From Thermoanaerobaculia bacterium (lineage in GTDB: Bacteria > Acidobacteriota > Thermoanaerobaculia > Multivoradales > UBA5704): a DNA stretch of 48,675 nucleotides. Below are positions 5,912-36,179 of this stretch, piece after piece (within the stretch, counting starts at the first letter, position 1; every line of letters starts with the position of its first letter). Where the stretch lies: contig DASQEB010000617.1 in the NCBI GenBank assembly GCA_035633875.1, positions 1-48,675 of the forward strand. Reading direction: 5' to 3'. The notes beneath the pieces are model-generated. The model ran no database searches. It was not told where the DNA came from and saw only the letters and a list, made by a program, of their open reading frames with translations. A program made the translations under genes and the position numbers.

Positions 5912-6100
5912 AGTCAATCCATATATACGGGGGGGAGCGCGTCCGCGTCTACGAGGCGTCACTCCCCTGGTTTCGGCCGGCTTCGCCCGCACGAACCCCG
6001 CTCCCGGCGGCCTCCTGACCCGGCCTCCCTTCCAACCGCCGGAGACCACAGAGCATTCCGGGGGGCTGGCACACGGCAAGTCATTATACTGCCGCCCGAG

Positions 6101-7396
6101 ATGCGCTCCGTCCTTTGGGGTCTCTACCAGCTTGCGGCCGGTGCCGCCCTGCTCACGGCGGGGCCGTTCCTGCTCGCCCGGCGGGGGAGCCACTACCTGC
6201 CGACCCTTCCCGGCCGTCTCGGCCGCCCGTCCGGCGCGAGCCCGGGTCCTCCGGTGAAGGGGGCCCTCTGGATCCACGCCGTCTCGGTCGGGGAGGTCGG
6301 GGTCGCCGCCACCCTGGTGCGGGCCCTGCCTCCCGAGGTGCCTCTCCTGGTCACCACCGTGACCCCCACCGGACAGGCCCGGGCGCGGACAGCCTTTGCC
6401 GGCCGCGCCGAGGTCGCCTACCTCCCCTTCGACCTGGGGTTTGCCGTCTCCCGCTTCTTCCGCCGGTTCGAGCCGGGGGCCCTGGTCCTCGTCGAGGGGG
6501 ACTACTGGCCGCTCCTCCTGCGGGAGGCCCGGCGCCGCGGCCTCCCCGTGGCCGTGGTGAACGGCCGGGTGGGCGACCGGAGCTTCCGCCGGATGCGGCG
6601 CCTGCGTCCTCTCCTCTCCCCTCTCTTCTCCGGCGTCGGCCGGTTCGGCGTCCAGAGCCCCGAGGACCGGGACCGGCTGGTCCGCCTCGGCGTCGGCGCC
6701 GAGCGGGTCACGGTCACCGGCAATCTCAAGTACGAGACCCCCGAGCCGGAGAGGAAACCCGAATTGGAGGAGACCTTCCGGTCTCTCGCGGCCGGCCGGC
6801 CCCTCCTCCTCGCCGGCTCCACCATGGCGGGGGAGGAGAGCCAGGTCCTGGACGCCTTCGAGACCCTGGGCGGCGGCGACCGGGCCCTCCTCGTCCTTGC
6901 CCCCCGCCATCCCGAGCGCTGGGACGAGGTGGACGCCCTCCTCCGCTCGCGGGGGGTCGACGCCGTCCGGCGCAGCCGGCTTGCGGGCGGCGCCCGGCCG
7001 GCCGCCGTCCTCCTCGACAGCCTGGGCGAGCTCGCGGGGACTTACCGTCTCGCCGCGGCGGCGTTCATCGGCGGCACCCTCGTCCCCACCGGCGGCCACA
7101 ACCCTCTGGAAGCCGCCCGGTTCGGGGTGCCCGTGGCCGTGGGGCCTTCCATGCACAACTTCCGGGAGATGGCCGAGGCCTTCGACCGCACCGCGGCCTG
7201 GCGCCGGGTGGCGGACGCCGGGGAGCTGGCGGACGCCTGGAGGGGATGGCTCGACGATCCCGCCGCCGCCCGCGAGCAGGGAGCGCGCGCCCTGCGGCTC
7301 CTGGACGAGAACCGGGGGGCGCTCGCGCGGACGCTCGAGATGCTGGGGCCGATCCTGGGGCTCTATCTGAAGACCAGGGTCAAGGAGGGTCGATGA
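6101..7396 (+). CDS. waaA: 3-deoxy-D-manno-octulosonic acid (Kdo) transferase
   Basis: Start taken at MRSVLWGLYQ, giving 431 aa. It has the WIHAVSVGEV motif and the C-terminal GGTLVPTGGHNPLEAA motif typical of KdtA/WaaA. The stop overlaps the lpxK start (ATGA). Confidence 0.9.
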   Translation: MRSVLWGLYQLAAGAALLTAGPFLLARRGSHYLPTLPGRLGRPSGASPGPPVKGALWIHAVSVGEVGVAATLVRALPPEVPLLVTTVTPTGQARARTAFAGRAEVAYLPFDLGFAVSRFFRRFEPGALVLVEGDYWPLLLREARRRGLPVAVVNGRVGDRSFRRMRRLRPLLSPLFSGVGRFGVQSPEDRDRLVRLGVGAERVTVTGNLKYETPEPERKPELEETFRSLAAGRPLLLAGSTMAGEESQVLDAFETLGGGDRALLVLAPRHPERWDEVDALLRSRGVDAVRRSRLAGGARPAAVLLDSLGELAGTYRLAAAAFIGGTLVPTGGHNPLEAARFGVPVAVGPSMHNFREMAEAFDRTAAWRRVADAGELADAWRGWLDDPAAAREQGARALRLLDENRGALARTLEMLGPILGLYLKTRVKEGR

Positions 7397-8412
7397 GATC
7401 CCCCTCCCCCCCCACCTCCCCCTGGCAGCTCCTCTACGGCGGCGCGCACCGCCTGCGTCAGCGGTGGTACGGCCCCCGGGCCCACCGCCTCCCGCGTCCC
7501 GTGGTGAGCGTCGGCAACCTCCACTGGGGAGGCGCCGGCAAGACGCCCCTCGTGGCCGCGGTCGCCGCCCATCTCCGGGATCGCGGCCTCGCCGTCTGCA
7601 TCCTCTCCCGCGGCTACGCGAGCCGGGGGCGGGGCGTGCGGGTGGTGAGCACGGGGGACGGGCCTCTCCTCGGTCCCCTCGTGGCGGGGGATGAGCCGGT
7701 CCTCCTCGCCGGCGAGCTGCCGGGGGTCTCCGTGGTCGTGGGGCCCGAGCGCTACCGGGCCGGCCTCCACGCCTTCCGCCGGCTTCCCGTCCCGCCGGAC
7801 CTCTTTCTCCTCGACGACGCCTTCTCCCACCTGGCCCTCCGCCGGGACCTGGACCTCGTCGCCTTCCCGGCGGCAGACCCGTTCGCCGGCGGGCGCCTCC
7901 TCCCTTCCGGCCGCCTGCGCGAGCCCCTCGCCTCCATGGCCCGTGCCCACGCCGCGATCCTCACCGGCGCGGCCGGGACCCCGGGGGAGGGCGCCGCCCT
8001 GGCCGCGGCCCTCCGCCCGTACGGCTTCACCGGTCCCGGCTTCGCCAGCGCAACCCGTCCCGGAGAGCCGCGCCTGGCGGACGGCACCCTGCTCCCCCCG
8101 GAAAGCCGGGTCTTCCTGGTCTCCGCCATCGCCCGGCCCGAAAGCTTCGCCGCCACCGTCCGCAGCCTCGGGCTCGACATCGTGGGAGAGCTCCGTTTCC
8201 CCGACCATCACCGCTACCCGGGAGCGAGCGTCGCCCGGATCGAGGAAGCCTGGACCGCCAGCGGCGCTGCCGCCGTGCTCACCACCACCAAGGACCGCGT
8301 CAAGCTCCACGGGCGCCTCGCCCTCCCACTGGCCGAGCTGCCCATCCGTGCCGAGCCCGAGCCGGCCTTCTGGGAGTGGCTGGATGGGGAGGTGGGGAGG
8401 ATGCGGGGATGA
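7393..8412 (+). CDS. lpxK: tetraacyldisaccharide 4'-kinase
   Basis: C-terminal 339 aa of the 6115..8412 track ORF. It has the P-loop VGNLHWGGAGKTPLV, the LSRGY motif and DDAFSH, and is translationally coupled to waaA. Confidence 0.9.
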   Translation: MRSPSPPTSPWQLLYGGAHRLRQRWYGPRAHRLPRPVVSVGNLHWGGAGKTPLVAAVAAHLRDRGLAVCILSRGYASRGRGVRVVSTGDGPLLGPLVAGDEPVLLAGELPGVSVVVGPERYRAGLHAFRRLPVPPDLFLLDDAFSHLALRRDLDLVAFPAADPFAGGRLLPSGRLREPLASMARAHAAILTGAAGTPGEGAALAAALRPYGFTGPGFASATRPGEPRLADGTLLPPESRVFLVSAIARPESFAATVRSLGLDIVGELRFPDHHRYPGASVARIEEAWTASGAAAVLTTTKDRVKLHGRLALPLAELPIRAEPEPAFWEWLDGEVGRMRG

Positions 8413-18924: not shown

Positions 18925-19061
18925 AGCGGCGTCAAGTCTCCTCCGGAGCGACATCTCTCGACGCAACGCCGCCGGCGCGCCACCGGAAGCCGGAATCACG
19001 CCCTTTTCCCTCCCTCGGCCCTGGCCGAAAAAGGCAAAACCAGCCATTCATGGGTGTTTGC

Positions 19062-19510
19062 GGAGCATTCCCCCTCCCGCGAGCCATCGGAAGGGGAGGG
19101 AATGCCTCATTCCCCGTTCTTCGCGTGATCCGCAGAGGAGCTGACGCCCCATTCCCCCGAGGGAACGCTCCTCGAACAGCCCTGCATACTGCGCGAAGGA
19201 CTGAAAAAATCGCATTCCCCCCTTCACGAGAGATTCGAACGACGGGGAAAGCCTCATTCCCCGCAGGGAATGCCCTGTCGATCGGTCTTCGTACGTCGCG
19301 AAGAGGAGGGAACGCTCCATTCCCCTCGGGGAACGTGTCCTGTCAGGCTCTCGCGAGCGAGAGCAAGGGGACGGAAGGTTGTACTCATTGCACTGCGCGA
19401 AGCTAGAAAAGGAGGGAATGCCCCATTCCCTGGAGGGAAAGGGGCTTTTTCCCGGTTGCGGGAGACTCGTCAAGGAAAGAAGAAGGCATGATAGGAGGGA
19501 ATGGCTCGCT
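19062..19510. repeat. array of short hairpin palindromes (GGGAATGCCYCATTCCC and half-sites) phased at multiples of 21 bp
   Basis: CATTCC starts at 19066, 19108, 19150, 19213, 19255, 19318 and 19424. The successive differences are 42, 42, 63, 42, 63 and 106. Full palindromes lie at 19098-19115, 19244-19262, 19308-19325 and 19414-19430. Extra GGAACGCTCC / GGAATGCCC half-sites lie at 19162, 19267 and 19329. The overlapping track ORFs on both strands have repeat-driven, non-protein-like translations. Confidence 0.8.
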
Positions 19511-19596
19511 TTGAGTCTCGTCCGCTTGGAAAACACCAGAAAATCCTTTCTGGAGTCCAAGAGGGCCGCAAGGCAGACCTTTCCGGATGAATAGGG

Positions 19597-20913
19597 CTAC
19601 GACTCCCTCCTGTACCACCTTCGCCGAAGGATCATCGCAAGCTCCCGGAAGGCACTTGCCTGTACACTTCTTCGCTCAACCCCCTCCTGGAGGATCCGCC
19701 ACGAGCGCAGGATGTCACCGTGGAGCTTCCAGGCTTCGAGGATCGGGTAGACGTGGGAGAGTATCTGTGCTGACTCCGCGACTCGTGCCTGAGAGGCGAG
19801 CACTTCCGCCAGATCGAGGGAAGCCAGGATCAGATCGAGCTCGAAGCTGTTCTCTACGTAGAGCTCTACAAGCTCGCGGAAGAAGCGCTCTGCCGTGCGT
19901 AGATCACCCTCGGTCCGCGCGATGTTGGCTTTCAGATGCAACAGGCGACCCGTCCAGAACACGTCCGTAAACCTGTCGTAGAGATAGCGGTAGGTTGCGA
20001 GAATCTGGGCGGCCTCTTCCGGGTTCCCCAACTCGTTGGTCCAGAATGCGAGCAGGTGTCTCCCGACGAGATCGAGGTGAGGGTCTTTGTCCGGCTCCAG
20101 GAGCAAGATTCCTTTCTCGGCCAAATCCAGTCCCAGGGCCGGATCGACAAAGCCGATGAATGAGGATTGTTTCAGGACGAGTCGACCCTCGAGCTGGCGA
20201 TCCTGGATACGGCGGGCACACCTGATTCCCCGGCTCAAAATCTTGGCCGCATCCTCCAGATAACCGAGGTCTGCCCTCAAAGAGGAGAAGATGGAGATGA
20301 GATTGGCTCTTCCATAGAGATCTCCAGTTCCCTTGTCGAGCCGCTCCTTTGCGGACTCCAGAGCCGCTTCTGCTCCCGCGAAATCGCCTGCCAGTCTCTT
20401 TGCGTTCCCGAGGACAATGTATGCGCCTGCCTTGAAATCACAGATTCTTTCCTGCCCGTATGCTTCTATGTCCAACTGCTCCGCAATCGCCAGAGCAAGA
20501 TGGGCAAGGTCGACCCCTTGGAGAGGATCATTCCGGGCGGTTGTTCTTGCCTGGTCTACTACCCGCTCGTACATGCCCCATGTGCGATAGCTGTCGACAT
20601 TCTTGATGATGAACAGACGGCTCTCTGGTGGTTCGCTCAGGAGCTTGGGCCACAACTCATCAGCAATCCGCCGCTCGGCCTGGACCTCGTTTTGAGCGAC
20701 CACATAGGCGAGCTCGAGGCGGCGGAGGAGCGCGGTATAGTCCGGCTCCTGGTTCCCTGGAGCGACTGCCGCTCGTACCAACTCAAGACACGGCTTACAC
20801 CTTGAGAGGAGATGACGCACGATCCGTTGCTTCTCCTCGGGAGGCAAGGTCTCAGCCAAGAGACGATCTACTTGCTCCCTCGATGCATGGGCATGATTCT
20901 TCGCCATTTCCAT
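19597..20913 (-). CDS. cytoplasmic zf-HC2 (anti-sigma-like zinc finger) plus TPR-like helical repeat protein
   Basis: 438 aa. N-terminal H-x3-C-x2-C (HLLSRCKPC), no transmembrane helix, and a long all-helical repeat region. It is clearly more A/T-rich than the flanking genes. Confidence 0.75.
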   Translation of the reverse strand: MEMAKNHAHASREQVDRLLAETLPPEEKQRIVRHLLSRCKPCLELVRAAVAPGNQEPDYTALLRRLELAYVVAQNEVQAERRIADELWPKLLSEPPESRLFIIKNVDSYRTWGMYERVVDQARTTARNDPLQGVDLAHLALAIAEQLDIEAYGQERICDFKAGAYIVLGNAKRLAGDFAGAEAALESAKERLDKGTGDLYGRANLISIFSSLRADLGYLEDAAKILSRGIRCARRIQDRQLEGRLVLKQSSFIGFVDPALGLDLAEKGILLLEPDKDPHLDLVGRHLLAFWTNELGNPEEAAQILATYRYLYDRFTDVFWTGRLLHLKANIARTEGDLRTAERFFRELVELYVENSFELDLILASLDLAEVLASQARVAESAQILSHVYPILEAWKLHGDILRSWRILQEGVERRSVQASAFRELAMILRRRWYRRES

Positions 20914-21101
20914 CCCGGCATCCCATGATGAAAGTCGTTCTCGCCAGAATCGCTCTCAAGAGCCCGGACCTATGGACGCGAGTGGCATCCGGCGGCCCCG
21001 CAGCCTGGAAGCCGTGTCGTGCCTGGAGGAGAATCATACACCAAAGGAAGAAACGCCGGGGAGCCCCCGGCGCAAGAGGACACGACTCCAGGATGCAGGG
21101 T

Positions 21102-26084: not shown

Positions 26085-26136
26085 GTTAAAATCCCCCCCT
26101 CCGATTGATCTGCTGTCTGTGTCCCAAGGAGAGCCC

Positions 26137-28458
26137 ATGCCCACGACCGTCCTGGAACCCCGGTTCATCGAGATCATCGCTTCGGAGGTGGGGTGCAGGC
26201 CCCAGCAGGTGACCGCTGCCGCGGACCTGTTCGCGGAGGGGGCGACCGTCCCGTTCGTCGCCCGCTATCGCAAGGAGGCCACCGGGGGACTCGAAGACCT
26301 CCAGCTCGAAAACATCTTCAAGCGCCGGGAGTACTTCCTGGAGCTGACCGACCGCCGCGATGCCATCCTGGAAAGCATCCGCGAGCAGGGCAAGCTCACC
26401 GAGGAGCTGGAGGCGGCCCTCCGCGCCGCCACGACCAAGCAGGAGCTGGAGGATCTCTACCTCCCCTACAAGCCGAAGCGCCGCACCCGGGCCCAGATCG
26501 CCCAGGAAAAGGGCCTGGAGCCCCTGGCCGACGCCCTCCTGGCCAACGCCGCCACTCGCGCTTTCCCCGAGGAGCTGGCCCGGCCGTTCATCGATGCGGA
26601 GAAGGGGGTCGCGGATGCCGCTGCGGCCCTGGCCGGGGCGCGGGACATCCTGGCCGAGCGGATGTCGGAGAGCGCCGAGATCCGCGCCGACCTGCGCAAG
26701 GTCCTGGCCACCGAGGGCGTCCTGCGCGTGCGCGTCCTCCCTGACAAAGAGAAGGATCCTGAGGCCGCCACCTACCGCGACTACTTCGAGCACGACGAGC
26801 CGGGCAAGGACATCCCCTCGCACCGCCTGCTCGCGGTGCTTCGCGGCGAGCGCGAGGGTTTCCTGATCTCCGATCTCCGCATCGACGACGAGCGGGAGGT
26901 CGAGAGCCTCGGCCGCACCTGGGGCGTGCCCCTGGACACCCCCTGCGGCAAGGAGATCGCCGCCGCCACCGCGGACGGCTACAAGCGGCTGCTGCGCCCC
27001 TCGATCACCAACGAGGTCCGGTCCGAGATGCGCGAGCGTGCCGAGGCGCAGGCCATCGCCGTCTTCCGGGCCAACCTGGAGGCTCTCCTGCTCCAGGCTC
27101 CCCTGGGCCAGGTGCCCGTGATGGGGCTCGATCCCGGCTACCGGACCGGCTGCAAGCTGGCGGTGGTGGACGGCACCGGCCGGATGGTGGCCACGGACAT
27201 CATCCATCCCATTCAGCCCCATGCGGACGAGGCCGGGGCCGCCCGCACCGTGGTCGGGTTGATCAAGAAGCACGGCGTCCACGCCGTGGCCGTGGGCAAC
27301 GGCACGGCGAGCCGCGAGACCGAGGCCTTCGCCCGCAAGGCCGTCCAGGAGGCGGGCCTCGAAAAGGTCGTCGTGGCGATCGTCCCCGAGACCGGCGCCT
27401 CCGTCTATTCGGCCTCGGCCGTGGCCCGGGAGGAGCTGCCGCAGCTCGATGTCTCCCTGCGGGGCGCCGTCTCCATCGCCCGCCGCCTGCAGGACCCCCT
27501 GGCCGAGCTGGTCAAGATCGAGCCCCGCTCCATGGGCGTGGGCCAGTACCAGCACGACGTGGACCAGAAGTCCCTGGACAAGGAGCTGGACACCGCCGTC
27601 GAGGGCGCGGTCAACCGCGTGGGCGTGGAGCTGAATACCGCCTCGGCCTCCCTGCTGCGGCGGGTCTCGGGCCTCTCCGAGCGGCTGGCCAACAACATCG
27701 TGGCCCACCGGGACACCAACGGCCCGTTCCGCTCCAGGAAGTCGCTCCTCAAGGTGACCGGCTTCGGCCCCAAGACCTTCGAGCTCTCCGCCGGCTTCCT
27801 CCGCATCCGCGAAGGGGAGAACCCCCTGGACCGTACGGCCGTCCACCCCGAGCGCTACGAGGTGGTGGAGAAGATGGCTGAGGCCGTGAAGGTCCCGGTC
27901 TCCGACCTGGTGGGCAACCGCGACGTGGTCGGCAAGCTGGACTTCTCGCGCTTCGCCGACGAGAGCCACGGCCTGGGCAGGTTCACCCTGGAGGACATCC
28001 GCAACGAGCTCCTCCGCCCGGGCCGCGACCCGCGCCCCGAGTTCAAGACCCCCGAGTGGCGGGCGGACGTCACCACGGTCAAGGACATCCAGCCCGGCAT
28101 GGTCCTGGAGGGCCGGGTCTCGAACGTCGCCAATTTCGGAGCCTTCGTGGACATCGGGGTCCACCGCGACGGCCTCGTCCACGTCTCCGAGCTCACCCAC
28201 CGCTGGGTGGCGGACCCCCGCGACGCCGTCAAGGTGGGGGAGATCGTCAAGGTGAAGGTCCTGGAGGTGGACTACCAGCGCGAGCGCATCAGCCTCTCCA
28301 TCAAGGCCCTCCAGCAGCCTCCGGCCGAAGGCCGCCCCGCCACCGGCAGCGCCGGCCGCGGCGGCCGCCCCGGAGGCCCTCCCCCGGCAAAGCCGCAGCC
28401 GCCGAAACCGGGGTCGACGGTCGAGGATTTGATGCGGAAGTTCAACCGGGGGCGGTAG
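26137..28458 (+). CDS. tex: Tex-like transcription accessory protein (YqgF/RuvC-like, HhH and S1 domains)
   Basis: 773 aa starting at MPTTVLEPRF. It has the VPFVARYRKE motif, DLYLPYKPKRRTRA, GLDPGYRTGCK (YqgF), and the C-terminal S1 domain GRVSNVANFGAFVDIG. The 1631-aa track ORF (23563..28458) is an out-of-frame shadow of the tricorn gene fused to tex. Confidence 0.93.
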   Translation: MPTTVLEPRFIEIIASEVGCRPQQVTAAADLFAEGATVPFVARYRKEATGGLEDLQLENIFKRREYFLELTDRRDAILESIREQGKLTEELEAALRAATTKQELEDLYLPYKPKRRTRAQIAQEKGLEPLADALLANAATRAFPEELARPFIDAEKGVADAAAALAGARDILAERMSESAEIRADLRKVLATEGVLRVRVLPDKEKDPEAATYRDYFEHDEPGKDIPSHRLLAVLRGEREGFLISDLRIDDEREVESLGRTWGVPLDTPCGKEIAAATADGYKRLLRPSITNEVRSEMRERAEAQAIAVFRANLEALLLQAPLGQVPVMGLDPGYRTGCKLAVVDGTGRMVATDIIHPIQPHADEAGAARTVVGLIKKHGVHAVAVGNGTASRETEAFARKAVQEAGLEKVVVAIVPETGASVYSASAVAREELPQLDVSLRGAVSIARRLQDPLAELVKIEPRSMGVGQYQHDVDQKSLDKELDTAVEGAVNRVGVELNTASASLLRRVSGLSERLANNIVAHRDTNGPFRSRKSLLKVTGFGPKTFELSAGFLRIREGENPLDRTAVHPERYEVVEKMAEAVKVPVSDLVGNRDVVGKLDFSRFADESHGLGRFTLEDIRNELLRPGRDPRPEFKTPEWRADVTTVKDIQPGMVLEGRVSNVANFGAFVDIGVHRDGLVHVSELTHRWVADPRDAVKVGEIVKVKVLEVDYQRERISLSIKALQQPPAEGRPATGSAGRGGRPGGPPPAKPQPPKPGSTVEDLMRKFNRGR

Positions 28459-28629
28459 GCTCTGGCTCTGGAAGGCATGCCGGAAGGAGTGGACCTTTCG
28501 GCGAGCGGCAATCCATCACGCTACTCGGGTACAGAGACTGATATACTTGTTGGTATGCGACACGGACACGAGCGGCTCGAAGCCCAAGAGAACCTTGCGA
28601 CACCGGAGGTGGGGGCCTATCCTGAGTCC

Positions 28630-28878
28630 ATGAAGAAAACGGTCCGGCTGGATGACGACGTTGCCGCCCTCGTCGAGCAGGCCGGTCGGGAGCGCTCGAT
28701 GAATCCGGAGGAAGTCGTCAACCAGGTCCTCCGGGAAGACTTGTCCCGCGTTCTGGTCACCCCTGGGAAGGGTGAGCGACGGGAGCCGAAAGTCTTCAAC
28801 CTTGGCCCCTGCTTCTTGGACAATCTGGACGACATCAGCGGAGTGTTGGCGATCACCGAAGGAGAAGACTACAAGTGA
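28630..28878 (+). CDS. VapB-like antitoxin
   Basis: 82 aa starting at MKKTVRLDDDVAALVEQ. GTGA 4-nt overlap with the PIN toxin gene. The longer track ORF begins at 28477. Confidence 0.65.
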   Translation: MKKTVRLDDDVAALVEQAGRERSMNPEEVVNQVLREDLSRVLVTPGKGERREPKVFNLGPCFLDNLDDISGVLAITEGEDYK

Positions 28879-29300
28879 TCGTGGTGGACGCCAATCTGCT
28901 GATCTACTCCTCGATCGGAACCCTGCCTCAGCACAAAGCTTCTTACAGATGGCTGCGGCGGCAGCTTGAAGAGTTGCCGCGGGTCGGTATGCCTTGGTCA
29001 TCCTTGTTGGCGTTCGTCCGGATCGCCAGCAATTCCAGGCTGTTTGCCAGCGCGTTGTCGATCAGGGCAGCTTGGGAACAAGTCGAGATCTGGCTTTCGT
29101 GGCCTTCCGTCTGGATTCCGGTACCGACCCACAGGCACCCCGAGATTCTCGGCTCTCTCCTGTGCCTTCCAGGAATGAGCCCCAGGCATGTGCCGGACGC
29201 CCATATTGCGGCTCTCGCGATCGAGCACGATCTCACTTTGTGTAGCAACGACGGAGGCTTCTCCAAGTTCCCCGGCTTGCGGTGGCAGAACCCGATCTAG
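28875..29300 (+). CDS. vapC: PIN-domain ribonuclease toxin (VapC family)
   Basis: 141 aa. N-terminal VVDANLLIY (first acidic residue), DAHIAALAIEH, and a C-terminal SNDGGF motif. Confidence 0.85.
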   Translation: MIVVDANLLIYSSIGTLPQHKASYRWLRRQLEELPRVGMPWSSLLAFVRIASNSRLFASALSIRAAWEQVEIWLSWPSVWIPVPTHRHPEILGSLLCLPGMSPRHVPDAHIAALAIEHDLTLCSNDGGFSKFPGLRWQNPI

Positions 29301-29972: not shown

Positions 29973-31511
29973 ATGCGCCTCTCCGATCTCGTCGCAACCT
30001 CCCGCCGCGTCGCCGAGACCCGGTCCCGCGCGGAGAAGATCGGAGCGCTGGCGGACCTCCTGCGGCGCCTTGGCCCCGAGGAGATCGACATCGCCGTCGC
30101 TTTCCTCTCGGGCCACCTGCGACAGGGGCGGATCGGCCTCGGGGGCGCCGCGGTGCGCAACGCCCTGCCAGGGACGGCCGCCCAGGAGCCATCCCTCCCA
30201 CTGCGAGAGGTGGATGCCGCCTTCGAGCGGATCGCCGGGGTGATCGGTACGGGCTCCACGGCAGAGCGGGCCCGCCTCCTCTCCGATCTGCTGTCCCGGG
30301 CGACCCGGGAGGAGCAGGACTTCCTGGCGCGCCTGATTTTCGGTGAGCTGCGCCAGGGCGCCCTGGCGGGCCTCATGGCCGAGGCTCTGGCCGCCGCGGC
30401 GGAGGTTCCGGCGGACGAGGTGCGGCGGGCGCTCATGCTCGCCGGAGAGCTGCCGGCCGTGGCTCGGGCCGTCCTGACCGAGGGCCGGGCCGGCCTCGGC
30501 TGTTTCCATCTCCAGCTCTTCCGCCCCCTCCAGCCCATGCTCGCCCAGCCGGCCGGGGACGTCTCCGAGGCCCTGGGGCGTCTCGGCGAGGCTGCCCTGG
30601 AGCTCAAGCTCGACGGCGCCCGCATCCAGGTCCACAAGGCGGAGGACGACGTCCGCGTCTTCTCCCGCCGCGGCCATGACGTCACTCAGGCCGTGCCGGA
30701 GCTCGTCGAAACCGTCCAGGCGCTTCCGCCCCGGCAGCTCCTCCTGGACGGCGAGGTCATCGCCCTGCGGCCGGACGGCGCGCCCCATCCCTTCCCGATC
30801 ACCATGCGCCGCTTCGGCCGGAAGCTGGACGTCCCCCGTCTCCGGGGTGAGCTCCCCCTGACCCCCTTCTTCTTCGACCTCCTCCATGTGGATGGCGAGG
30901 ACCTGATCGACCGGCCGGCCGGCGAACGCTTCGCAGCCCTGGGGGAGGCCACCCCCGGGCTCGCCGTGCCGCGCATCGTGACCGCCGATCCCGAGGAGGC
31001 CGACGCCTTCTTCGAAAGTGCGCTCGCCGGTGGCCACGAGGGGATCATGGCCAAGGCCGTGGACGCCCCCTACGAGGCGGGCCGGCGCGGCTCCTCCTGG
31101 CTCAAGATCAAGCCCGCCCACACCCTGGACCTGGTCGTCCTCGCCGCCGAGTGGGGTCACGGCCGGAGACAGGGATGGCTGTCGAACCTCCATCTCGGCG
31201 CGCGCGATCCCGAGCACGGCGGTTTCGTCATGCTCGGCAAGACCTTCAAGGGCTTGACCGACGAGATGCTCGCCTGGCAGACGAAGAGATTCCAGGAGCT
31301 GGCCCTCGGAACCGACGGCTGGACCGTCCACCTCCGCCCGGAGATCGTCGCGGAGATCGCCTTCAGCGACGTCCAGGAGAGCCCCCAATACCCCGCCGGC
31401 ATGGCCCTCCGCTTCGCCCGCGTCAAGCGCTACCGCGAGGACAAGACGGCGGCGGAGGCGGACACGATCGAAACGGTGCGGAAGATCTTCGGTGTGGGGC
31501 GGGAGGGCTGA
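29973..31511 (+). CDS. ATP-dependent DNA ligase (Lig1/LigB-like, three-domain)
   Basis: 512 aa. Adenylation motif I ELKLDGARIQ (KxDG), motif EGIMAK, WLKIKP, and OB-fold C-terminal motifs. Confidence 0.9.
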   Translation: MRLSDLVATSRRVAETRSRAEKIGALADLLRRLGPEEIDIAVAFLSGHLRQGRIGLGGAAVRNALPGTAAQEPSLPLREVDAAFERIAGVIGTGSTAERARLLSDLLSRATREEQDFLARLIFGELRQGALAGLMAEALAAAAEVPADEVRRALMLAGELPAVARAVLTEGRAGLGCFHLQLFRPLQPMLAQPAGDVSEALGRLGEAALELKLDGARIQVHKAEDDVRVFSRRGHDVTQAVPELVETVQALPPRQLLLDGEVIALRPDGAPHPFPITMRRFGRKLDVPRLRGELPLTPFFFDLLHVDGEDLIDRPAGERFAALGEATPGLAVPRIVTADPEEADAFFESALAGGHEGIMAKAVDAPYEAGRRGSSWLKIKPAHTLDLVVLAAEWGHGRRQGWLSNLHLGARDPEHGGFVMLGKTFKGLTDEMLAWQTKRFQELALGTDGWTVHLRPEIVAEIAFSDVQESPQYPAGMALRFARVKRYREDKTAAEADTIETVRKIFGVGREG

Positions 31512-31565: not shown

Positions 31566-32249
31566 GTGCGCCGGGCCGACCGCCTGTTCCAGATCGTCCA
31601 GATCCTCCGCCGAAGGCGGCTGACCACCGCCCGCCATCTGGCGGAGAGCCTGGAGATCTCCGAGCGGACGGTCTATCGCGACATCCGCGATCTCGCGGCC
31701 TCGGGGGTGCCCATCGAGGGGGAGGCCGGGGTCGGATACCGGCTCCGGGGGTTCGACCTCCCTCCCCTGATGTTCAACCGGGAAGAGGTGGAAGCCCTGG
31801 TGCTCGGGGCGCGGATCGTCCAGTCGTGGACCGACCCGGAGCTCGCCCGGGCCGCGTCCGAAGCCCTTGCCAAGATCGAGGCCGCCCTTCCGCAGGACCG
31901 GAGCCACCTCGTCGATGGCACGCCGCTTTTCGCGCCGAGGGACCACTGGCGCATCGAGACCGCCGTGGACCTCCCCACGCTGCGTCGGGCCATCCGAGAA
32001 TCCCGGAAGCTCCGCTTCCGCTACATCGATGCCGGGGGGACGCCGTCCGAGCGGACGGTGCGCCCCCTCGGCCTCTCCTTCTATGGTCCGGTGTGGATCC
32101 TCGCCGCCTGGTGCGAGTTGCGGCAGGATTTCCGCGCGTTCCGCTTGGACCGCATCCAGGACCTGGAGGTGCTCCCCGGCAGCTTCCCGCCCGAGCCGGG
32201 GCGCACGCTCCAGGACTTCATCACGGCGATGAACGTGACGCCGGCCTAG
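31566..32249 (+). CDS. YafY-family transcriptional regulator (HTH + WYL domain)
   Basis: 227 aa with a GTG start. N-terminal RLFQIVQILRRRRLTTARHLAESLEISERTVYRDIRDL, then a WYL-type domain (RFRYID..ERTVRPLGLSFYGPVWILAAWCELRQDFRAFRLDRI). Confidence 0.85.
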   Translation: MRRADRLFQIVQILRRRRLTTARHLAESLEISERTVYRDIRDLAASGVPIEGEAGVGYRLRGFDLPPLMFNREEVEALVLGARIVQSWTDPELARAASEALAKIEAALPQDRSHLVDGTPLFAPRDHWRIETAVDLPTLRRAIRESRKLRFRYIDAGGTPSERTVRPLGLSFYGPVWILAAWCELRQDFRAFRLDRIQDLEVLPGSFPPEPGRTLQDFITAMNVTPA

Positions 32250-32380: not shown

Positions 32381-32869
32381 TCAGGCCGTCACCGGGGAAG
32401 GCTCCTCCATGTAGGGCATGGCCGGCACGCGGCCGAGGAGGCGGGAGTAGACCGTCAGCGCTCCACGGTGGTGGGCCGTGTGGTCCACGAGCGCGCCCAC
32501 GATGGCGGCGCGGGGTCCGTCCATGATGCCGGGCGGCAGCGGCTGCGAGAGCTCCTCGGCCGAGCTCGAGCCGATCTTCCGGATGGCCCGGTCGAACGCG
32601 GCATCCAGCCAGGCCCGCGCCTCGGTCAGCGAGCGGGCTTCCGCGATCTCCCGCCCGAGCTTGTCCCAATCCATGTCGAAGCCTTCCGGCCGGAAGGCTC
32701 CCTCGAGGAACCAGTCCACCGTCTGGGCCGCGTGGGCCACCTGTTGCGCCACCGTCCACGTCCCTTCTACCGGGGAGAACGTCGAATCCTCCTCCCGCAG
32801 GCAGCTCGTGGACGTGTCGAAGAACTTCTTGGTCGACTTCAGCTCGGCAACCAGTGTTTCCGGGGTCAT
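32381..32869 (-). CDS. DinB-family (DinB_2-like) four-helix-bundle metalloprotein
   Basis: 162 aa. His triad pattern: VAHAAQTVDWF ... LVDHTAHHRGAL. Confidence 0.8.
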   Translation of the reverse strand: MTPETLVAELKSTKKFFDTSTSCLREEDSTFSPVEGTWTVAQQVAHAAQTVDWFLEGAFRPEGFDMDWDKLGREIAEARSLTEARAWLDAAFDRAIRKIGSSSAEELSQPLPPGIMDGPRAAIVGALVDHTAHHRGALTVYSRLLGRVPAMPYMEEPSPVTA

Positions 32870-33006
32870 CTCATCTCCTCCTTCATCGTTCTCTCGGGTT
32901 GGTTCCTGCGACCAAGGAGAGTCTCGCTCAGGGCTCCTGACAGCGTCGTGTCAGGAGCGTAAACGGGACGTTTGTTCCGCCTGTTGTTTCCGGAAGGACC
33001 TTCTGG

Positions 33007-33033
33007 CGCAAACAAGGGGTGGCCTTGTTTGCG
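33007..33033 (-). terminator. hairpin downstream of the TIR-like gene (terminator candidate)
   Basis: CGCAAACAAGG / CCTTGTTTGCG is a perfect 11-bp stem with a 5-nt loop, about 25 nt past the stop at 33059. There is no clear U tract. A second 10-bp hairpin lies at 32933-32958. Confidence 0.35.
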
Positions 33034-33058: not shown

Positions 33059-34156
33059 TCAGAGCCGGTTCGTCCACCTCAGACGGGCATGCTGGCGAAG
33101 GATCTGTGTGTAGGCGTCGAGATAGGCGCCGAAGAGGCTGCCCGGGTCTTCCCGTTGCTCGAGGAGGAGAGACGGGAGCTCCTGGGATTCCAGGCCGCCG
33201 CAGGCGGAGATGATCATCCGGTGGTCGAAGCGGAGGAGGGAGGGGCAGGGGGCCAGCGGGGAGACGTAGAGGCTCACGGTCGCCCTGGCGCGGTCGCCCA
33301 CAAGGGTCCCGAGGGCTTCGATGGTTTCGGCCAGGTCTGCGGCGGAGCCGGGCCGGAGGACGCGGGCCAGGTCGCTTCCGGGATCGAGGACGAGGAGGTT
33401 GGCCTCCCCTCTCGTCTCGCGGGCGAAGCGCCGCAGCCCGCCGAGCACGGACCTCAGCGTGGAAGAAGGGAGGAAGGCGACGTCGACGCGCTCCCGGGCC
33501 GAGTCGACGAGCCCCTCGATGTCCAGGCCTCCGGGCCGCGGTGCCACGTCCCGCAGGCCGAGCGCGGAGAGCCGCGCGAGACCGAGCCCTCCGCGGGCGA
33601 GAGCCTCCTCGTCGATCTGCACGAAGGCGGGCGGGCGGGCCGGCCGGGTCTCTCCGGAGATCTCCCCAACCCACCGGTCGATCAGCTCCCGGACGCCGGA
33701 GTCGCTCTGGTAAGGCCAGTGCAGATCCTTGATGAGATCGAAGGGGACCTGGGGAAGGGAGGCGTGCCTCAGGATCAGGCAGCTCTTCCGCTGCAGGTGC
33801 ATCATCCCGAGCTCGTAGGCGACGTTGGGGCTGAAGGCCTGGCCTTCCTCGGGCTCGTCGAACAGGGCGAGGCCGTACTTGCAGCAGGAGAGGACGGCGA
33901 CGGGGTTGTAGACGTTGCCGGTGATGTTCCACTCGGGCTGATCGGCCCTCACCCCCTGGAAGCCGTGCCGCGCGAGGGTCTCGATGATGTGGTCGGACAG
34001 GTCCGCGTTCGCGGTGCGGAACCGGAGCATCAGGAAGACGTTGCGCTCGTAGGGGAAGCGCTCGAGCCGCGAGAGGATCTCGGCCTTGAAGCCCACGAGG
34101 GGCTTCAAAAGCGGGAAGGTCCCCTCGCCAGGGATGTACAGCGCGTCCTGCAACAT
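33059..34156 (-). CDS. TIR-like / nucleoside deoxyribosyltransferase-like Rossmannoid domain protein with unknown Arg/Leu-rich C-terminal domain
   Basis: 365 aa. The N-terminal approx. 150 aa follow the TIR-like/NDT pattern: VFLMLRF ... GVRAD ... ALFD ... SPNVAYELGMMHLQRKSCLIL ... PFDL. The last approx. 200 aa match no family I recognise. It is the last gene of a three-gene minus-strand operon. Confidence 0.7.
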   Translation of the reverse strand: MLQDALYIPGEGTFPLLKPLVGFKAEILSRLERFPYERNVFLMLRFRTANADLSDHIIETLARHGFQGVRADQPEWNITGNVYNPVAVLSCCKYGLALFDEPEEGQAFSPNVAYELGMMHLQRKSCLILRHASLPQVPFDLIKDLHWPYQSDSGVRELIDRWVGEISGETRPARPPAFVQIDEEALARGGLGLARLSALGLRDVAPRPGGLDIEGLVDSARERVDVAFLPSSTLRSVLGGLRRFARETRGEANLLVLDPGSDLARVLRPGSAADLAETIEALGTLVGDRARATVSLYVSPLAPCPSLLRFDHRMIISACGGLESQELPSLLLEQREDPGSLFGAYLDAYTQILRQHARLRWTNRL

Positions 34157-34935
34157 TCCGACGGCCTTGCCAGCTCATGACCGATGTCGGTCAGCCCTGC
34201 GAAGAGGTGGAGCCAGAGGCTCGCGAGGGCATCGGCCACGGCCTCCTGCCGTTCGAACGCCACGAGCTCCTCGGGCGCCAGCCACCGGGGATCCAGGCCG
34301 TAGCTCGAGTTGGGCCGGTGACCGAGGGCGTGATGGGCCAGCTCGTGGCAGACGCACAGAGCCTGATGGCCCGGCCTAAGGTTTCTTTTGAGATAGATGA
34401 CGGATCGCGATCGGGTCTGGAGGAGGAAGGCGTCCATTTCGTCGAGGGAGCCCGGCTCGACTTCGATGCCCCAATGGCTCGCCAGGCTCCTGGCCCAGGG
34501 GAGCAAGGCGCCTTCCGTCCCCGATCCATGGCCCCGGATCTCCAGCTCCAAAGGTTTGGATGCCAGGCTCCTGGTGATCTGTTTCCAGGCGAAGCCCAGC
34601 GCCCGGGGAGGTCCGCCGAGGAGGAAGAGCCCGTCCTCATGCTCCCGAAGCTGCCGGTCCGGATAGGAGCGGAGCCGGTTTCGAAGGAAGCCGTGCCGGT
34701 CCAGAGCACGCCCGCCCGGGGCGGGCGTGCCGGCGTGGAAGCGCAGGAGCAGTGTTCGGGAGGACCTGGACGTCTCGATGGAGAGCGACGAGAGATCGTC
34801 GGTGAACGAGGCTGGGGCTCGCGAGGCGGTGTGCGGCGCTGGCGGCTTGCCGAACCAGCTTCGAAACCGGTGGAGCATGCCGGTCTGCCCCAGAGACCCG
34901 GGACGGCGGTCTGCCAGATTGGAGATGTCCATCAC
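34105..34935 (-). CDS. ImmA/IrrE-family (M78) zinc metallopeptidase
   Basis: 276 aa. HExxH motif in the typical context VIYLKRNLRPGHQALCVCHELAHHALGH. ATGA overlap with the upstream HTH gene. Its 3' end overlaps the downstream ORF by 52 nt. Confidence 0.75.
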   Translation of the reverse strand: MMDISNLADRRPGSLGQTGMLHRFRSWFGKPPAPHTASRAPASFTDDLSSLSIETSRSSRTLLLRFHAGTPAPGGRALDRHGFLRNRLRSYPDRQLREHEDGLFLLGGPPRALGFAWKQITRSLASKPLELEIRGHGSGTEGALLPWARSLASHWGIEVEPGSLDEMDAFLLQTRSRSVIYLKRNLRPGHQALCVCHELAHHALGHRPNSSYGLDPRWLAPEELVAFERQEAVADALASLWLHLFAGLTDIGHELARPSECCRTRCTSLARGPSRF

Positions 34936-35570
34936 ACCTTCCCCTCCTTCCGCAGGTCTTCCCAGCGGAGATCCTCGAGCTTGCGGAGGATCTCGTCCCG
35001 TTTGGTCTGGCTGAGGCGCCGTACCCGCGACATCGTGAAGACCCTCCCGTAGCCCAGATCGTCATACCGAAAAATTCGCCGGAGCGAGTAGTCCGGTCCG
35101 TAGGAGCCTCCCTGCCGGAAATAGCCCTCCGGGAGCAGCAGCGCGCGCTCGAGGGCATTCAGGTACTCCGGGCGAGGGACGAGGCTCTGAAACCGGGAGA
35201 AGACCCAGAGCGCCGCGAGAGGAATACCCGCCTCCCTGGAGATGTCGCGGAGCGTCAGGTCCAGGAGGAGGCGGTGCGTCCGCAAGGCGCCCCGGTAATG
35301 GGGATGCTCCGCGGCGGCCTTCTCCTGGTCCCGGTGGAGCCACGAGGACAGCAGGAGGCAGCCGGCCCGCCAGAGGAGCCGGCGAGCCCGAGGGCCGCGG
35401 ACCAGGAGGACCGCGCTCAGAACCGCGAGACCGTAAACTGCCGTGGCCTCGCCCCAGGCCGGCAGGCCGCCGGCCCCCGACTGGTTAATGAGGATGGCTG
35501 CAATGGCGAGCGCGATCCCTGCAGCCTCGAATCGGCTCTTCTCGGAATCGCCCAGGTGCGCGTGCTTCAA
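34932..35570 (-). CDS. XRE-like helix-turn-helix protein with hydrophobic N-terminal segments
   Basis: 212 aa. It has two or three hydrophobic stretches (AAGIALAIAAILI, AVYGLAVLSAVLLV, AGCLLLSSWL), then the HTH-like LLLDLTLRDISREAGIPLAALWVFSRF. The start codon is not verified. Confidence 0.6.
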   Translation of the reverse strand: MKHAHLGDSEKSRFEAAGIALAIAAILINQSGAGGLPAWGEATAVYGLAVLSAVLLVRGPRARRLLWRAGCLLLSSWLHRDQEKAAAEHPHYRGALRTHRLLLDLTLRDISREAGIPLAALWVFSRFQSLVPRPEYLNALERALLLPEGYFRQGGSYGPDYSLRRIFRYDDLGYGRVFTMSRVRRLSQTKRDEILRKLEDLRWEDLRKEGKV

Positions 35571-35825
35571 GGGGTCCCCTTTTCAGTCCCGGACTCGCGG
35601 TGCCGGAAACCTTCCCCCCAACCGACGCGATGGAAAGCTGCAACTGCTGACAGCCTGCTTGCAAGTGGCGAGCCCGGTGGGAGCCCGGTCCCGCGGCGGC
35701 CGTGAGCATCATGTCTGTCAACCATCGAGCCCGCATTCGGAAACACTCCTCCATAAAATAAGGACGCTCGAGCGGGGGAAAAGGGGACAGGGGGCGGGGC
35801 AAAGAGCCCCGATGGCGGGACATCT

Positions 35826-36179
35826 TTACTTGATCCGGGGGCCTCCGCCCGGAGGGAAAAGGGTCACCACGGGGAAGGTGCGGATGGACGACTCCTTTTC
35901 CACGCTCGAGCGGACGCGGGCGGGACCCTCGCGCTCGACCTCCTCGATGCGGATGACGGAGTGCAGGGGCAGAAAGAGCCGCTTGGCGTGGCCGAACTCG
36001 GACCGCAGGCTCTCTTCGGCCGGGTCGACCACGACCTCGGTGCGGCCGCCAAAGACGAGGTCCTCGACCTCGATGAAGCCGAAGAGGTTTCCCTGCGAGA
36101 CCTGGCGCGCGTAGAGCTCGACGATGTCACCCTGGTTGATGAAGATGACCTTGTACATGCGGTCCTTGTCCGTGCTCAT
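35826..36179 (-). CDS. DUF1820 family protein
   Basis: 117 aa. YKVIFINQGDIVELYARQVSQGNLFGFIEVEDLVFG ... VVDPAEESLRSEFGHAKRLFLPLHSVIRIEEVE matches the DUF1820 pattern. Confidence 0.75.
   Translation of the reverse strand: MSTDKDRMYKVIFINQGDIVELYARQVSQGNLFGFIEVEDLVFGGRTEVVVDPAEESLRSEFGHAKRLFLPLHSVIRIEEVEREGPARVRSSVEKESSIRTFPVVTLFPPGGGPRIK

Follow-up and report, generated by a model that had tools for sequence, protein, structure and literature searches.

A three-gene cassette of Thermoanaerobaculia joins a candidate membrane-anchored regulator and an M78 peptidase to a predicted N-glycosidase-type effector

We analyzed a 48,675-nucleotide stretch of DNA from a Thermoanaerobaculia bacterium (assembly GCA_035633875.1, contig DASQEB010000617.1; the whole stretch is referred to as the window here), with a focus on three tightly packed genes on its minus strand, which we call g1, g2, and g3. 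They encode a regulator candidate with a probable XRE-type helix-turn-helix (HTH) domain (g1), a zinc metallopeptidase of the M78 (ImmA/IrrE) type (g2), and a two-domain enzyme-like protein (g3), whose N-terminal domain, termed domain X here, is predicted to be an effector domain of the N-glycosidase type. The three genes are inherited as one unit, and their three-way co-occurrence is strict in the data examined. We read this cassette as a proteolytic switch that would control an enzymatic effector, likely with a function in abortive infection or in another kind of conflict, and we put the probability of this reading at about 0.5. The combination of an HTH repressor and an M78 protease beside a TIR-like or nucleoside 2-deoxyribosyltransferase (NDT)-like, potentially toxic enzyme is known already. 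New are an effector family whose member in g3 stays below every library threshold, its fusion to a phospholipase D (PLD) fold that lacks the catalytic HKD motif, and a protease without a GAF domain next to a probably membrane-tethered XRE-type protein.

The three genes are inherited as one unit

The three genes g1 (34932-35570, 212 amino acids, TTG start), g2 (34105-34935, 276 amino acids), and g3 (33059-34156, 365 amino acids) are present on the minus strand where a preliminary description of this DNA, made from the sequence alone, had placed three tightly packed open reading frames (ORFs). Their G+C contents at third codon positions (GC3) are 0.84, 0.80, and 0.91, respectively, at a second-position content of ∼0.5, and the same pattern holds for neighboring host genes (window G+C content, 68%). 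Given this coding-type GC3 and the conserved homologs that were found for each of them, g1 to g3 are genes and not chance ORFs. The nearest named relatives come from metagenome bins of Thermoanaerobaculia (Acidobacteriota), and only a small clade of uncultured bacteria carries the cassette.

We traced full-length g3 homologs (47 to 87% identity) to their contigs and ran hidden Markov models (HMMs) of g1 and g2 over 68 fetched loci and the window. Homologs of both genes lie upstream of g3 in seven of seven loci with a full-length protein, in which domain X is joined to the PLD-fold domain, and in none (0/59) of the other loci, where g3 is represented by its N-terminal domain alone. In five loci (L001 to L005), a gene for a protein of 211 to 213 amino acids and an M78 peptidase gene precede the g3 homolog. 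The surroundings of the triad vary: L001 and L002 have a window-like context, L003 has different genes on both sides, and L004 and L005 lie in an entirely different context. Synteny of the triad, a point that the preliminary description had raised for checking, holds in 7/7 loci and across three or more distinct genomic contexts. DNA-level similarity among the loci sets in ∼260 nucleotides upstream of g1 and breaks off at the stop codon of g3, so that the cassette can be delimited to about 33059-35830, a self-contained unit of ∼2.8 kb on the minus strand.

The occurrence in different contexts, together with insertions and deletions at the cassette borders, could also be expected of a remnant or minimal form of a mobile-element immunity or addiction module, in which the Xre-COG2856 (ImmR/ImmA-like) pair would be a selfish, toxin-antitoxin-like core and g3 a cargo gene with no mechanistic tie to it. 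For Xre-COG2856 pairs, a toxin-antitoxin-like nature has been predicted, the order of HTH gene, M78 gene, and third gene is presumably that of immR-immA-int in ICEBs1, and a PIN-domain gene pair and a variable region are found in the same window. We nevertheless judge this explanation very unlikely. Neither the syntenic gene list of L001 (within 6 kb) nor the ten window ORFs that were scanned contain an integrase or phage gene, and no tRNA was found in the whole window. Moreover, g1, g2, and the C-terminal domain of g3 were found only together (7/7) in the data examined, which favors a coevolved function over cargo, and most loci show translational coupling or overlap of g2 and g3. A mobile-element origin as such was likewise considered and rejected on account of the host-like GC3, the missing tRNA, and the lack of domain X homologs in the plasmid and phage records searched.

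Translation is coupled between the genes of the cassette. The overlap of g1 and g2, previously read as ATGA, is in fact GTGA (4 nucleotides), or TGATG (1 nucleotide) if translation starts at the ATG one codon later. The overlap of 52 nucleotides between g2 and g3, for which a start-site check had been advised, does exist, with the ATG at 34156 as the likely start of g3, because the N-terminal motif behind it is conserved and the overlapping tail of g2 is not (alignment of 12 homologs). We rejected an alternative TTG start at 34108, which would form a TTGA junction with the g2 stop and has GAGGGG upstream, since the conserved segment “L.IPGEG.F.LIKPL.GF” lies upstream of this TTG and is kept in every relative, even internally in fusion proteins. 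In the L004 and L005 orthologs there is no overlap, g2 stopping 9 nucleotides before g3, and the overlap in the window is likely a lineage-specific extension of g2.

Domain X has an NDT/DNPH1/TIR-like fold and an invariant glutamate

Domain X comprises residues 1 to 172 of g3 (33641-34156, minus strand). The AlphaFold2 (AF2) model of g3 shows two domains, with a mean predicted local distance difference test (pLDDT) score of 83.8 and values of ∼90 in domain X, where β-α repeats follow the five-stranded order typical of Rossmann-like proteins. In a Foldseek search of the PDB, DNPH1/Rcl was the best single-domain match to domain X (target-normalized TM-score, 0.62 to 0.66; root mean square deviation [rmsd], ∼4 to 4.8 Å), and TIR-STING and Argonaute chains were among the further fold matches. 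A library of viral folds (BFVD) returned a CMP/hmCMP hydrolase, nucleoside 2-deoxyribosyltransferases, and a CAP12/Pycsar TIR protein. As far as the model tells, domain X has a DNPH1/NDT/CMP-hydrolase/TIR-like fold. This agrees with the TIR-like or NDT-like Rossmannoid pattern that had been noticed earlier in the N-terminal half of g3, and the motifs quoted for that pattern are present in what proves to be an extremely conserved domain.

At the sequence level, g3 reached no family at threshold in Pfam, PADLOC, or NCBIfam (PADLOC-DB v2.0.0 provided the antiphage models and was run on the cassette genes and eight neighbors). The only Pfam family within an E value of ≤1 was PF05014, to which the match was weak (E value of 0.15, 12.7 bits, against a gathering score of 28.8); there was no match at this cutoff to PF10137, PF01582, or PF13676, and a domain X profile had no match among PDB sequences. 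The HMM checks that had been suggested, which included PF06114, PF10137, PF05014, and the TIR families, thus lifted g2 above the PF06114 threshold and left g3 and g1 below all thresholds.

The suggested structure prediction with a search for a glutamate in the pocket yielded, in addition to the NDT/TIR-like fold, the candidate catalytic residue E115 (33812-33814, minus strand) within the motif “NVAYELG.” E115 is invariant in 63/63 domain X sequences and opens the helix of residues 110 to 121, which follows strand 3 (residues 94 to 99). By topology, we take this position to be the one occupied by the nucleophile glutamate in DNPH1 and NDT and by the catalytic glutamate in TIR NADases, and “YELG,” with its candidate nucleophile glutamate, presumably resembles the DNPH1 motif. 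The polar residues R47, D72, N77, N84, K93, D100, E101, E103, N111, and D140 are also invariant within the triad clade, and so many invariant polar residues fit an enzyme. The domain has an invariant set of its own, consisting of D72, W76, N84, P85, C91, C92, D100, N111, Y114, E115, and D140.

Domain X can be compared with two groups of enzymes. It shares with DNPH1, NDT, and the CMP hydrolases the best single-domain fold matches and the weak PF05014 score; it differs from DNPH1 and NDT by an additional N-terminal β-hairpin and helix elements, by the fusion to a PLD fold, and by associations with receiver (REC), TIR, SIR2, and integrase genes or domains that are unlike those of salvage enzymes. 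With CAP12/Pycsar (PF10137) proteins and TIR NADases, it shares the flavodoxin-like Rossmann type, the glutamate that starts the helix after strand 3, and the use as a swappable module, and its remote members match PF10137 over the whole domain. In contrast to CAP12/Pycsar proteins, g3 itself has no PF10137 match, its own invariant set, and no domain that senses cyclic nucleotides.

Domain X is a widespread and modular family

An HMMER scan of 1.84 billion representatives of clusters at 50% identity retrieved 883 relatives of domain X at an E value of ≤1e-3, 199 at ≤1e-10, and 63 at ≤1e-30. Matches to PF10137 were seen in 14 of 131 relatives (E value of ≤1e-3; relatives found by phmmer with E values of 1e-13 to 1e-18). 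All 10 of the remote members that were scanned singly match both PF10137 (E value of ≤0.014) and PF05014 over the domain X region, and one of them exceeds the PF10137 gathering score (29.9 bits versus 24.7). Because its remote members reach these families, domain X is placed, judged by sequence, as a divergent branch of the TIR-like/NDT assemblage, a link that is transitive only.

The most common architecture of the family is REC fused to domain X (REC-X). Others are a guanylate kinase (GK)-like domain followed by domain X (GK-X), domain X followed by an unrelated C-terminal domain of ∼130 amino acids, NUDIX fusions, and TIR followed by domain X; for one such protein (P0091), the TIR matches lie outside domain X, in a distinct N-terminal domain to which domain X is joined. 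Single fusions were found with SIR2_2, AEP-TOTE, ResIII/DEAD, GAF, low-molecular-weight (LMW) phosphatase, and acylphosphatase domains. Among the same-strand neighbors of domain X are NUDIX genes (10/84), histidine kinases (6), XRE-type HTH genes (4), and MerR-type HTH genes (3), with MerR_1 and HTH_17 matches among the surveyed neighbors. Individual loci lie near integrases together with PIN_12 and FRG genes, near a type ISP restriction-modification (R-M) enzyme, near a DNA methylase, or near a TIR_2 gene.

We surveyed the distribution of domain X in 185,579 GTDB species representatives with two peptide patterns, so that the 60 loci recovered are a lower bound. Spread over ∼10 phyla, they belong to Acidobacteriota, Desulfobacterota, Clostridia, Planctomycetota, Verrucomicrobiota, Bacteroidota, Chlorobiota, Chloroflexota, Nitrospirota, and one archaeon. 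The 59 nontriad loci are 37 to 65% identical to the query, and the single locus of the triad type is 59% identical. A patchy, modular, and horizontally spread domain of this kind carries the usual signature of conflict-system effectors.

The prevalence of REC-X proteins raises a different possibility, namely, that domain X is a physiological signaling output that makes or destroys a nucleotide-derived messenger, the triad being its transcriptionally controlled version. The six histidine kinase neighbors, one of which lies directly upstream of a REC-X gene, the GAF, LMW phosphatase, and acylphosphatase fusions, and the very high conservation of the domain would all suit such a role. We regard it as highly improbable, given that the REC-X locus that we examined sits between integrases and PIN_12/FRG genes and that TIR, SIR2_2, and AEP-TOTE fusions occur in the same family. 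Nor does the REC fusion argue against a conflict role, because in Detocs, a two-component system with a proven role in defense, the output is an N-glycosidase: the REC effector of Detocs is an ATP nucleosidase with a purine nucleoside phosphorylase (PNP) fold, and the system includes the buffer receiver DtcB. The paralogous REC-X proteins resemble Detocs in that a receiver fused to an output of the N-glycosidase type is found beside a histidine kinase. They differ in the effector fold (PNP versus domain X) and in the absence of DtcB from the REC-X locus L006, and the triad differs from Detocs in its input, which is HTH/protease based and not phosphotransfer.

Several domain X loci outside the triad clade deserve mention in their own right. 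In L006 (4369-6996; uncultured Acidobacteriota, 2.49-Mb contig), a HATPase_c histidine kinase gene is followed by the REC-X gene, and the pair is flanked by two integrase-like genes and by PIN_12, HTH_19, and FRG genes in a Detocs-like arrangement. In L023, L033, and L036, from Pyrinomonadaceae and gut Clostridia, a gene for a GK-X protein (∼365 to 385 amino acids; ∼5350-6500) precedes a gene for a protein of 440 to 490 amino acids with a central NUDIX domain (∼6470-7940), which looks like a two-gene, nucleotide-centered module. L033 belongs to the cultured mouse gut isolate Eubacterium sp. 14-2, which makes this GK-X/NUDIX pair experimentally accessible. In L016 (5762-6912), L025 (5742-6900), and L026 (1755-2913), an ORF of 65 to 70 amino acids precedes a gene for a domain X protein of ∼300 amino acids with another C-terminal domain of ∼130 amino acids. 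The small ORF of L016 matches MerR_1 weakly, and the arrangement may be another HTH-controlled effector variant. We considered whether these ∼130-amino-acid domains could be truncated PLD-like domains and rejected the idea, since the HMM of the g3 C-terminal domain found none of them. Finally, the domain X gene of “Candidatus Argoarchaeum ethanivorans” (L024, 6001-6594) is 51% identical to the window copy, which points to horizontal transfer between domains of life.

The C-terminal half of g3 has a phospholipase D fold without the HKD motif

The C-terminal ∼200 amino acids of g3 had been described as matching nothing recognizable. Their fold can be recognized, however: residues 175 to 365 (33062-33634, minus strand) matched a Streptomyces PLD (E value of 3.5e-6), Nuc, the C-terminal domain of TrmB (TrmB-C), and poxvirus F13 in Foldseek, with E values from 3.5e-6 to 9e-4. 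The sugar-binding domain of TrmB and TrmBL2 were also among the matches. Against Nuc (1byr), the target-normalized TM-score was 0.60, and the pLDDT of this part of the model is mostly 75 to 95. The HKD motif, HxK(x)4D, is absent from residues 175 to 365, as there is no invariant histidine or lysine in this half, and H312 is an aspartate in orthologs. What is invariant instead are R309, D311, R313, and a terminal “WTNRL.” The PLD-like parts of the TrmB domain and of TrmBL2 are likewise not known to contain the catalytic HKD residues.

Besides the missing HKD motif, the domain departs from the PLD/Nuc family, with which it shares the fold, in having no sequence-level Pfam match and in being restricted to the triad; an HMM built from it matches triad proteins only. 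Based on the model, we presume that it is a noncatalytic sensor or binding domain.

g2 is an M78 peptidase without a GAF sensor domain

The assignment of g2 to the ImmA/IrrE type, made previously from the HExxH context “CHELAHHALGH,” is well supported. The protein exceeds the gathering score of Pfam family PF06114 (25.0 bits versus 22; E value of 1.7e-5; residues 156 to 210), and several orthologs carry a precomputed match to the same family. The PADLOC capP model also matches g2, with an E value of 1.3e-7, over model positions 26 to 110 of 242 only. A search of 5.8 billion clusters returned 14 homologs. The zinc-binding and catalytic motif (H196, E197, and H200; 34336-34350, minus strand) and E230 (34246-34248, minus strand), a candidate for the third zinc ligand, are invariant in 12 aligned homologs. 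In CapP, the corresponding residues are H96, E97, H100, and E129, and the spacing between the second histidine and the glutamate 30 residues later agrees with that in g2 (bioRxiv 10.1101/2022.04.27.489752). As judged from these motifs, g2 is an M78 zinc peptidase with an intact active site.

Outside the peptidase core, g2 offers little. Residues 1 to 80 form a low-complexity extension that is missing from orthologs of 216 amino acids, and the protein ends 76 residues after the HExxH motif, with only ∼50 of these residues conserved. A Pfam scan detected no GAF domain in g2 and nothing past the peptidase core, and a g2 profile had no match among PDB sequences.

g1 is a candidate membrane-anchored HTH regulator

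Homologs of g1 are rare: 5.8 billion clusters contained seven, of which six are full length (54 to 92% identity) and the seventh is 86% identical over 20% of the query. No match was obtained in Pfam, PADLOC, or NCBIfam, and no Pfam HTH family scored at an E value of ≤1. The existence of an XRE-like HTH in g1, proposed previously, is probable on the evidence of sequence and fold matches of the CapH type, of which none is statistically significant. The domain was placed at residues 94 to 151 (35118-35291, minus strand). When the g1 family profile was compared with PDB sequences, the best match was the N-terminal domain of CapH (7t5u), covered over its whole length at an E value of 0.3. The AF2 model of g1 is weak (mean pLDDT, 54.6; ∼55 to 69 in the HTH region) and contains four short helices of the XRE type at residues 95 to 143. 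Its Foldseek list is dominated by XRE repressors, with the CapH N-terminal domain ranked second (33% identity; rmsd, 2.3 Å) and DdrO, 434 Cro, P22 C2, C.Esp1396I, and SinR among the others, at nonsignificant E values of 0.2 to 1.6; the XRE alignments have rmsd values of ∼2 to 2.5 Å over 57 to 66 columns.

The preliminary description had also counted two or three membrane-helix-like segments ahead of the HTH. Two of them stand, within residues 14 to 60 (35391-35531, minus strand), and a third helix is not hydrophobic. The two segments extend over residues ∼14 to 36 and 38 to 60, the second followed by the positively charged “RGPRARR.” Their Kyte-Doolittle maxima over 19 residues are 1.54 and 1.64 in g1 of the window and 1.44 to 2.44 across seven orthologs, such that hydropathy is retained while the sequence drifts. 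This pattern suggests a membrane hairpin with the HTH on the cytoplasmic side, and g1 is probably membrane anchored, as predicted from hydropathy. CapH, in comparison, is small and soluble and carries its HTH at the N terminus, and g1 differs from it by the ∼90 residues with two hydrophobic helices that precede the HTH. More generally, the internal position of the HTH and the probable membrane anchor set g1 apart from ImmR, DdrO, and CapH.

The C-terminal region of g1 (residues 152 to 212; 34935-35117, minus strand) is its most conserved part, with most columns invariant in eight sequences and an AF2 fold that is not confident. By analogy with the C termini of DdrO, CapH, and ImmR, it is a candidate for a region of oligomerization and cleavage.

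Upstream of g1, an alignment of six loci defines a conserved leader with a putative promoter region (35571-35830, minus strand). It contains an AT-rich block (TCCTTATTTTAT), a sequence resembling a ribosome-binding site (AAAGGGGA), and a conserved context of the TTG start, which is kept in all g1 orthologs; the stretch TGAAAAGrGGACCCCTTGAAGCA is invariant, as are the TTG and the upstream AAAGGGGA. No σ70-like site was found upstream of g1, and neither this region nor the rest of the window contains a member of an Rfam family.

Comparison of the cassette with known repressor-protease pairs

The closest parallel to the cassette is the pair of CapH and CapP, in which an XRE-type HTH protein and an M78 peptidase with HExxH motif likewise accompany a potentially toxic effector. 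The capP model match and the zinc-ligand spacing of g2 and the CapH N-terminal domain as best, if nonsignificant, sequence match of the g1 HTH extend this likeness to the individual proteins. CapP contains an HTH-like domain in its center, a GAF domain for the binding of single-stranded DNA (ssDNA) at its C terminus, and, in a third of the cases, a cysteine-switch loop, and capH-capP are usually divergent from the operon that they control (bioRxiv 10.1101/2022.04.27.489752). The cassette, in contrast, has g1, g2, and g3 codirectional in one operon, and g2 lacks the GAF domain.

ImmR and ImmA offer a second parallel, with the genes for repressor and protease, in this order, in one operon; we take the order of HTH and M78 genes to be that of immR-immA, and g2 is a small M78 protein like ImmA. 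DdrO, in turn, was one of the proteins matched by the g1 HTH at the fold level, and its partner IrrE differs from g2 by the presence of a GAF domain. For both pairs, the target is another one: the cassette would control an enzyme-like effector and not excision or repair functions. It also differs from the ICEBs1-type ImmR/ImmA arrangement in that no integrase or mobile-element genes were seen near it. CapH and DdrO are substrates of M78 peptidases.

Proposed mechanism and its weak points

The switch model for g1 and g2 is based on the analogy with ImmR/ImmA, DdrO/IrrE, and CapH/CapP. According to this model, g1 would be a repressor-like XRE-HTH protein that is held at the membrane by its N-terminal hairpin of two helices. 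At rest, it would limit transcription of its own operon, and the weak, conserved TTG start would keep its level low. Upon a trigger such as infection, envelope stress, or DNA stress, g2 would cut g1 within the conserved C-terminal part of the latter, whereupon expression would rise. The PLD-fold domain of g3 could act as a second gate that depends on a ligand or partner. Domain X would then cleave the N-glycosidic bond of NAD+ or of a nucleotide, leading to cell arrest or phage starvation. We thus infer DNA binding, repression, and membrane insertion for g1, cleavage of g1 for g2, substrate and toxicity for g3, the nature of the trigger, and the role in defense.

A number of observations weigh against this model. 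As regards the regulator and protease, the HTH of g1 is backed by nonsignificant scores and a low-confidence model (mean pLDDT, 54.6), no operator-like inverted repeat was found upstream of g1, and g2 is devoid of the GAF/ssDNA-sensing domain by which CapP and IrrE are activated. A membrane-tethered repressor that acts on its own operon, effector included, would be unusual, and a single operon for repressor, protease, and effector is unlike the textbook switch. Regarding the effector, domain X is 37 to 65% identical to the query across phyla and hence far more conserved than expected of a defense effector, the association with NUDIX and kinase domains would suit a metabolic or signaling enzyme as well, and domain X had no match on 72,556 plasmids and in 50,697 phage records. 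The surroundings speak in the same direction: the neighbors in the window are housekeeping genes (amidase, VOC, DUF1820, DinB, WYL, ligase), the window lacks tRNA genes, integrases are missing from the gene lists described above, and the GC3 of the cassette is close to that of the host. PADLOC, finally, recognized no catalogued antiphage system, with g2 matching capP only and the neighbors matching only a generic WYL model.

A more specific version of the proteolytic switch is that domain X constitutes a new family of immune or conflict N-glycosidases that act on nucleotides (deoxynucleoside monophosphates [dNMPs], nucleoside triphosphates, or modified nucleotides) and not on NAD+, with the membrane-anchored XRE protein and the GAF-less M78 peptidase coupling an envelope event to induction. 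A nucleotide substrate would explain the recurrent partnership with NUDIX and guanylate kinase-like domains. The family would then be served by at least five input modules, namely, two-component kinases, MerR-like HTH proteins, GK-like domains with NUDIX, TIR fusions, and the XRE/M78 pair. The envelope event could be phage adsorption, injection, or membrane stress, and the PLD-fold gate could sense nucleic acid or phospholipid. We consider this elaborated version improbable as a whole; if true, its sensing route is one that has not been described for CapH/CapP, ImmR/ImmA, or DdrO/IrrE.

Genomic neighborhood of the cassette

At higher coordinates, upstream of the cassette, follow a DUF1820 gene, a gene with glyoxalase fold (VOC), and an amidase gene; at lower coordinates, downstream, lie genes for a DinB-family protein, a WYL/HTH_11 regulator, and an ATP-dependent DNA ligase. 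The ligase (29973-31511, plus strand), the WYL/HTH_11 regulator (31566-32249, plus strand; PADLOC WYL model, E value of 1.1e-69; weak similarity to the PafC HTH), and the DinB-family gene (32381-32869, minus strand) are also found in L001 and are absent from L003 and L004. This cluster may be a DNA damage regulon unrelated to the triad.

In view of these neighbors, one has to ask if the cassette is a stress module, in which an IrrE/DdrO-like switch responds to DNA or envelope damage by inducing a DNPH1-like enzyme that hydrolyzes damaged or modified (deoxy)nucleoside monophosphates, cleansing the nucleotide pool to the benefit of the cell. The best single-domain fold match of domain X, DNPH1/Rcl, is a dNMP N-glycosidase, and M78/XRE pairs control DNA damage regulons in Deinococcus (PMC12828697). 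The adjoining DinB, WYL/PafC-like, and ligase genes in the window and L001, the links of domain X relatives to NUDIX and nucleotide kinase-like domains, the high conservation of domain X, and the host-like GC3 of the cassette point the same way. On the other hand, the three neighbors are not kept in L003 or L004, and a spread over at least 60 of 185,579 species representatives is patchy and unlike that of a general repair function. The TIR, SIR2, AEP-TOTE, and ResIII fusions and the loci beside integrase, R-M, and FRG genes do not fit well either, PF05014 was not reached, and the domain X profile matched no PDB sequence. Taken together, we see the stress module as an unlikely alternative to the conflict-related switch. 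Were it true, the cassette would encode an inducible nucleotide-sanitizing enzyme under IrrE-like control and with it a new counterpart of DNPH1 in bacteria.

The window does not lend the conflict-related reading support by association, and it is not a defense island. The conflict genes that the preliminary description had noted nearby, a VapBC-type pair and the WYL regulator, turned out to be weak arguments: the PIN pair is not adjacent to the cassette but ∼4 kb away, past the ligase, WYL, and DinB genes, and PADLOC sees the WYL regulator only generically. Similarly, the PADLOC check recommended for the contig recovered capP for g2 and left g1 and g3 unrecognized, with no known system adjacent. 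The contextual support thus comes from other members of the domain X family and not from the window.

The DUF1820 gene (35826-36179, minus strand; PF08850, E value of 4.8e-35) lies directly upstream of the cassette on the same strand. It is missing at the same place in L001 and L002, where 375 nucleotides separate the glyoxalase-fold gene from g1, and this difference is an indel at the upstream border of the cassette. At the other end, the hairpin that had been reported to follow the operon (33007-33033, minus strand) does exist, with an 11-bp stem, and was rejected as a terminator: it has no T-run, the folding z-score of its 64-nucleotide region (−1.56) is not significant, and it is missing in L001 and absent or different in orthologous loci. 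The cassette probably does not include this hairpin as a conserved element. A further, near-perfect hairpin (CTCCTGACACGACGCTGTCAGGAG; 32937-32960, minus strand) is located ∼70 nucleotides upstream of the DinB-family gene and is kept in L001 with a few substitutions.

Two regions farther away stand out by composition. The region 26086-29300 has a GC3 of 0.70 to 0.75, compared with ∼0.9 elsewhere. It contains a gene for a 704-amino-acid protein without a Pfam or PADLOC match (26086-28200, minus strand) and, at 28477-29300 on the plus strand, an ORF of 133 amino acids that overlaps an ORF of 141 amino acids with a PIN domain by 4 nucleotides, a pair resembling VapBC. In the otherwise syntenic L001, a Tex-like gene occupies this position, and close relatives thus differ in this region. 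The lowest-GC patch of the window (0.58; 19000-21000) includes an ORF of 438 amino acids with TPR repeats (19597-20913, minus strand; GC3, 0.68) and may be a foreign insertion.

Implications

In the literature, we found no description of the domain X family or of the triad; the search turned up TIR-like systems with DUF4062 (Swarozyc and Evangelion). If the conflict-related reading of the cassette is true, an uncharacterized effector family of 883 clusters joins the immune enzymes that target nucleotides or NAD, and the switch of repressor and M78 protease can do without a GAF/ssDNA sensor and accommodate a repressor that is tethered to the membrane. The REC fusions beside kinases and the GK-like fusions with NUDIX would then provide several independent handles on the function of domain X.

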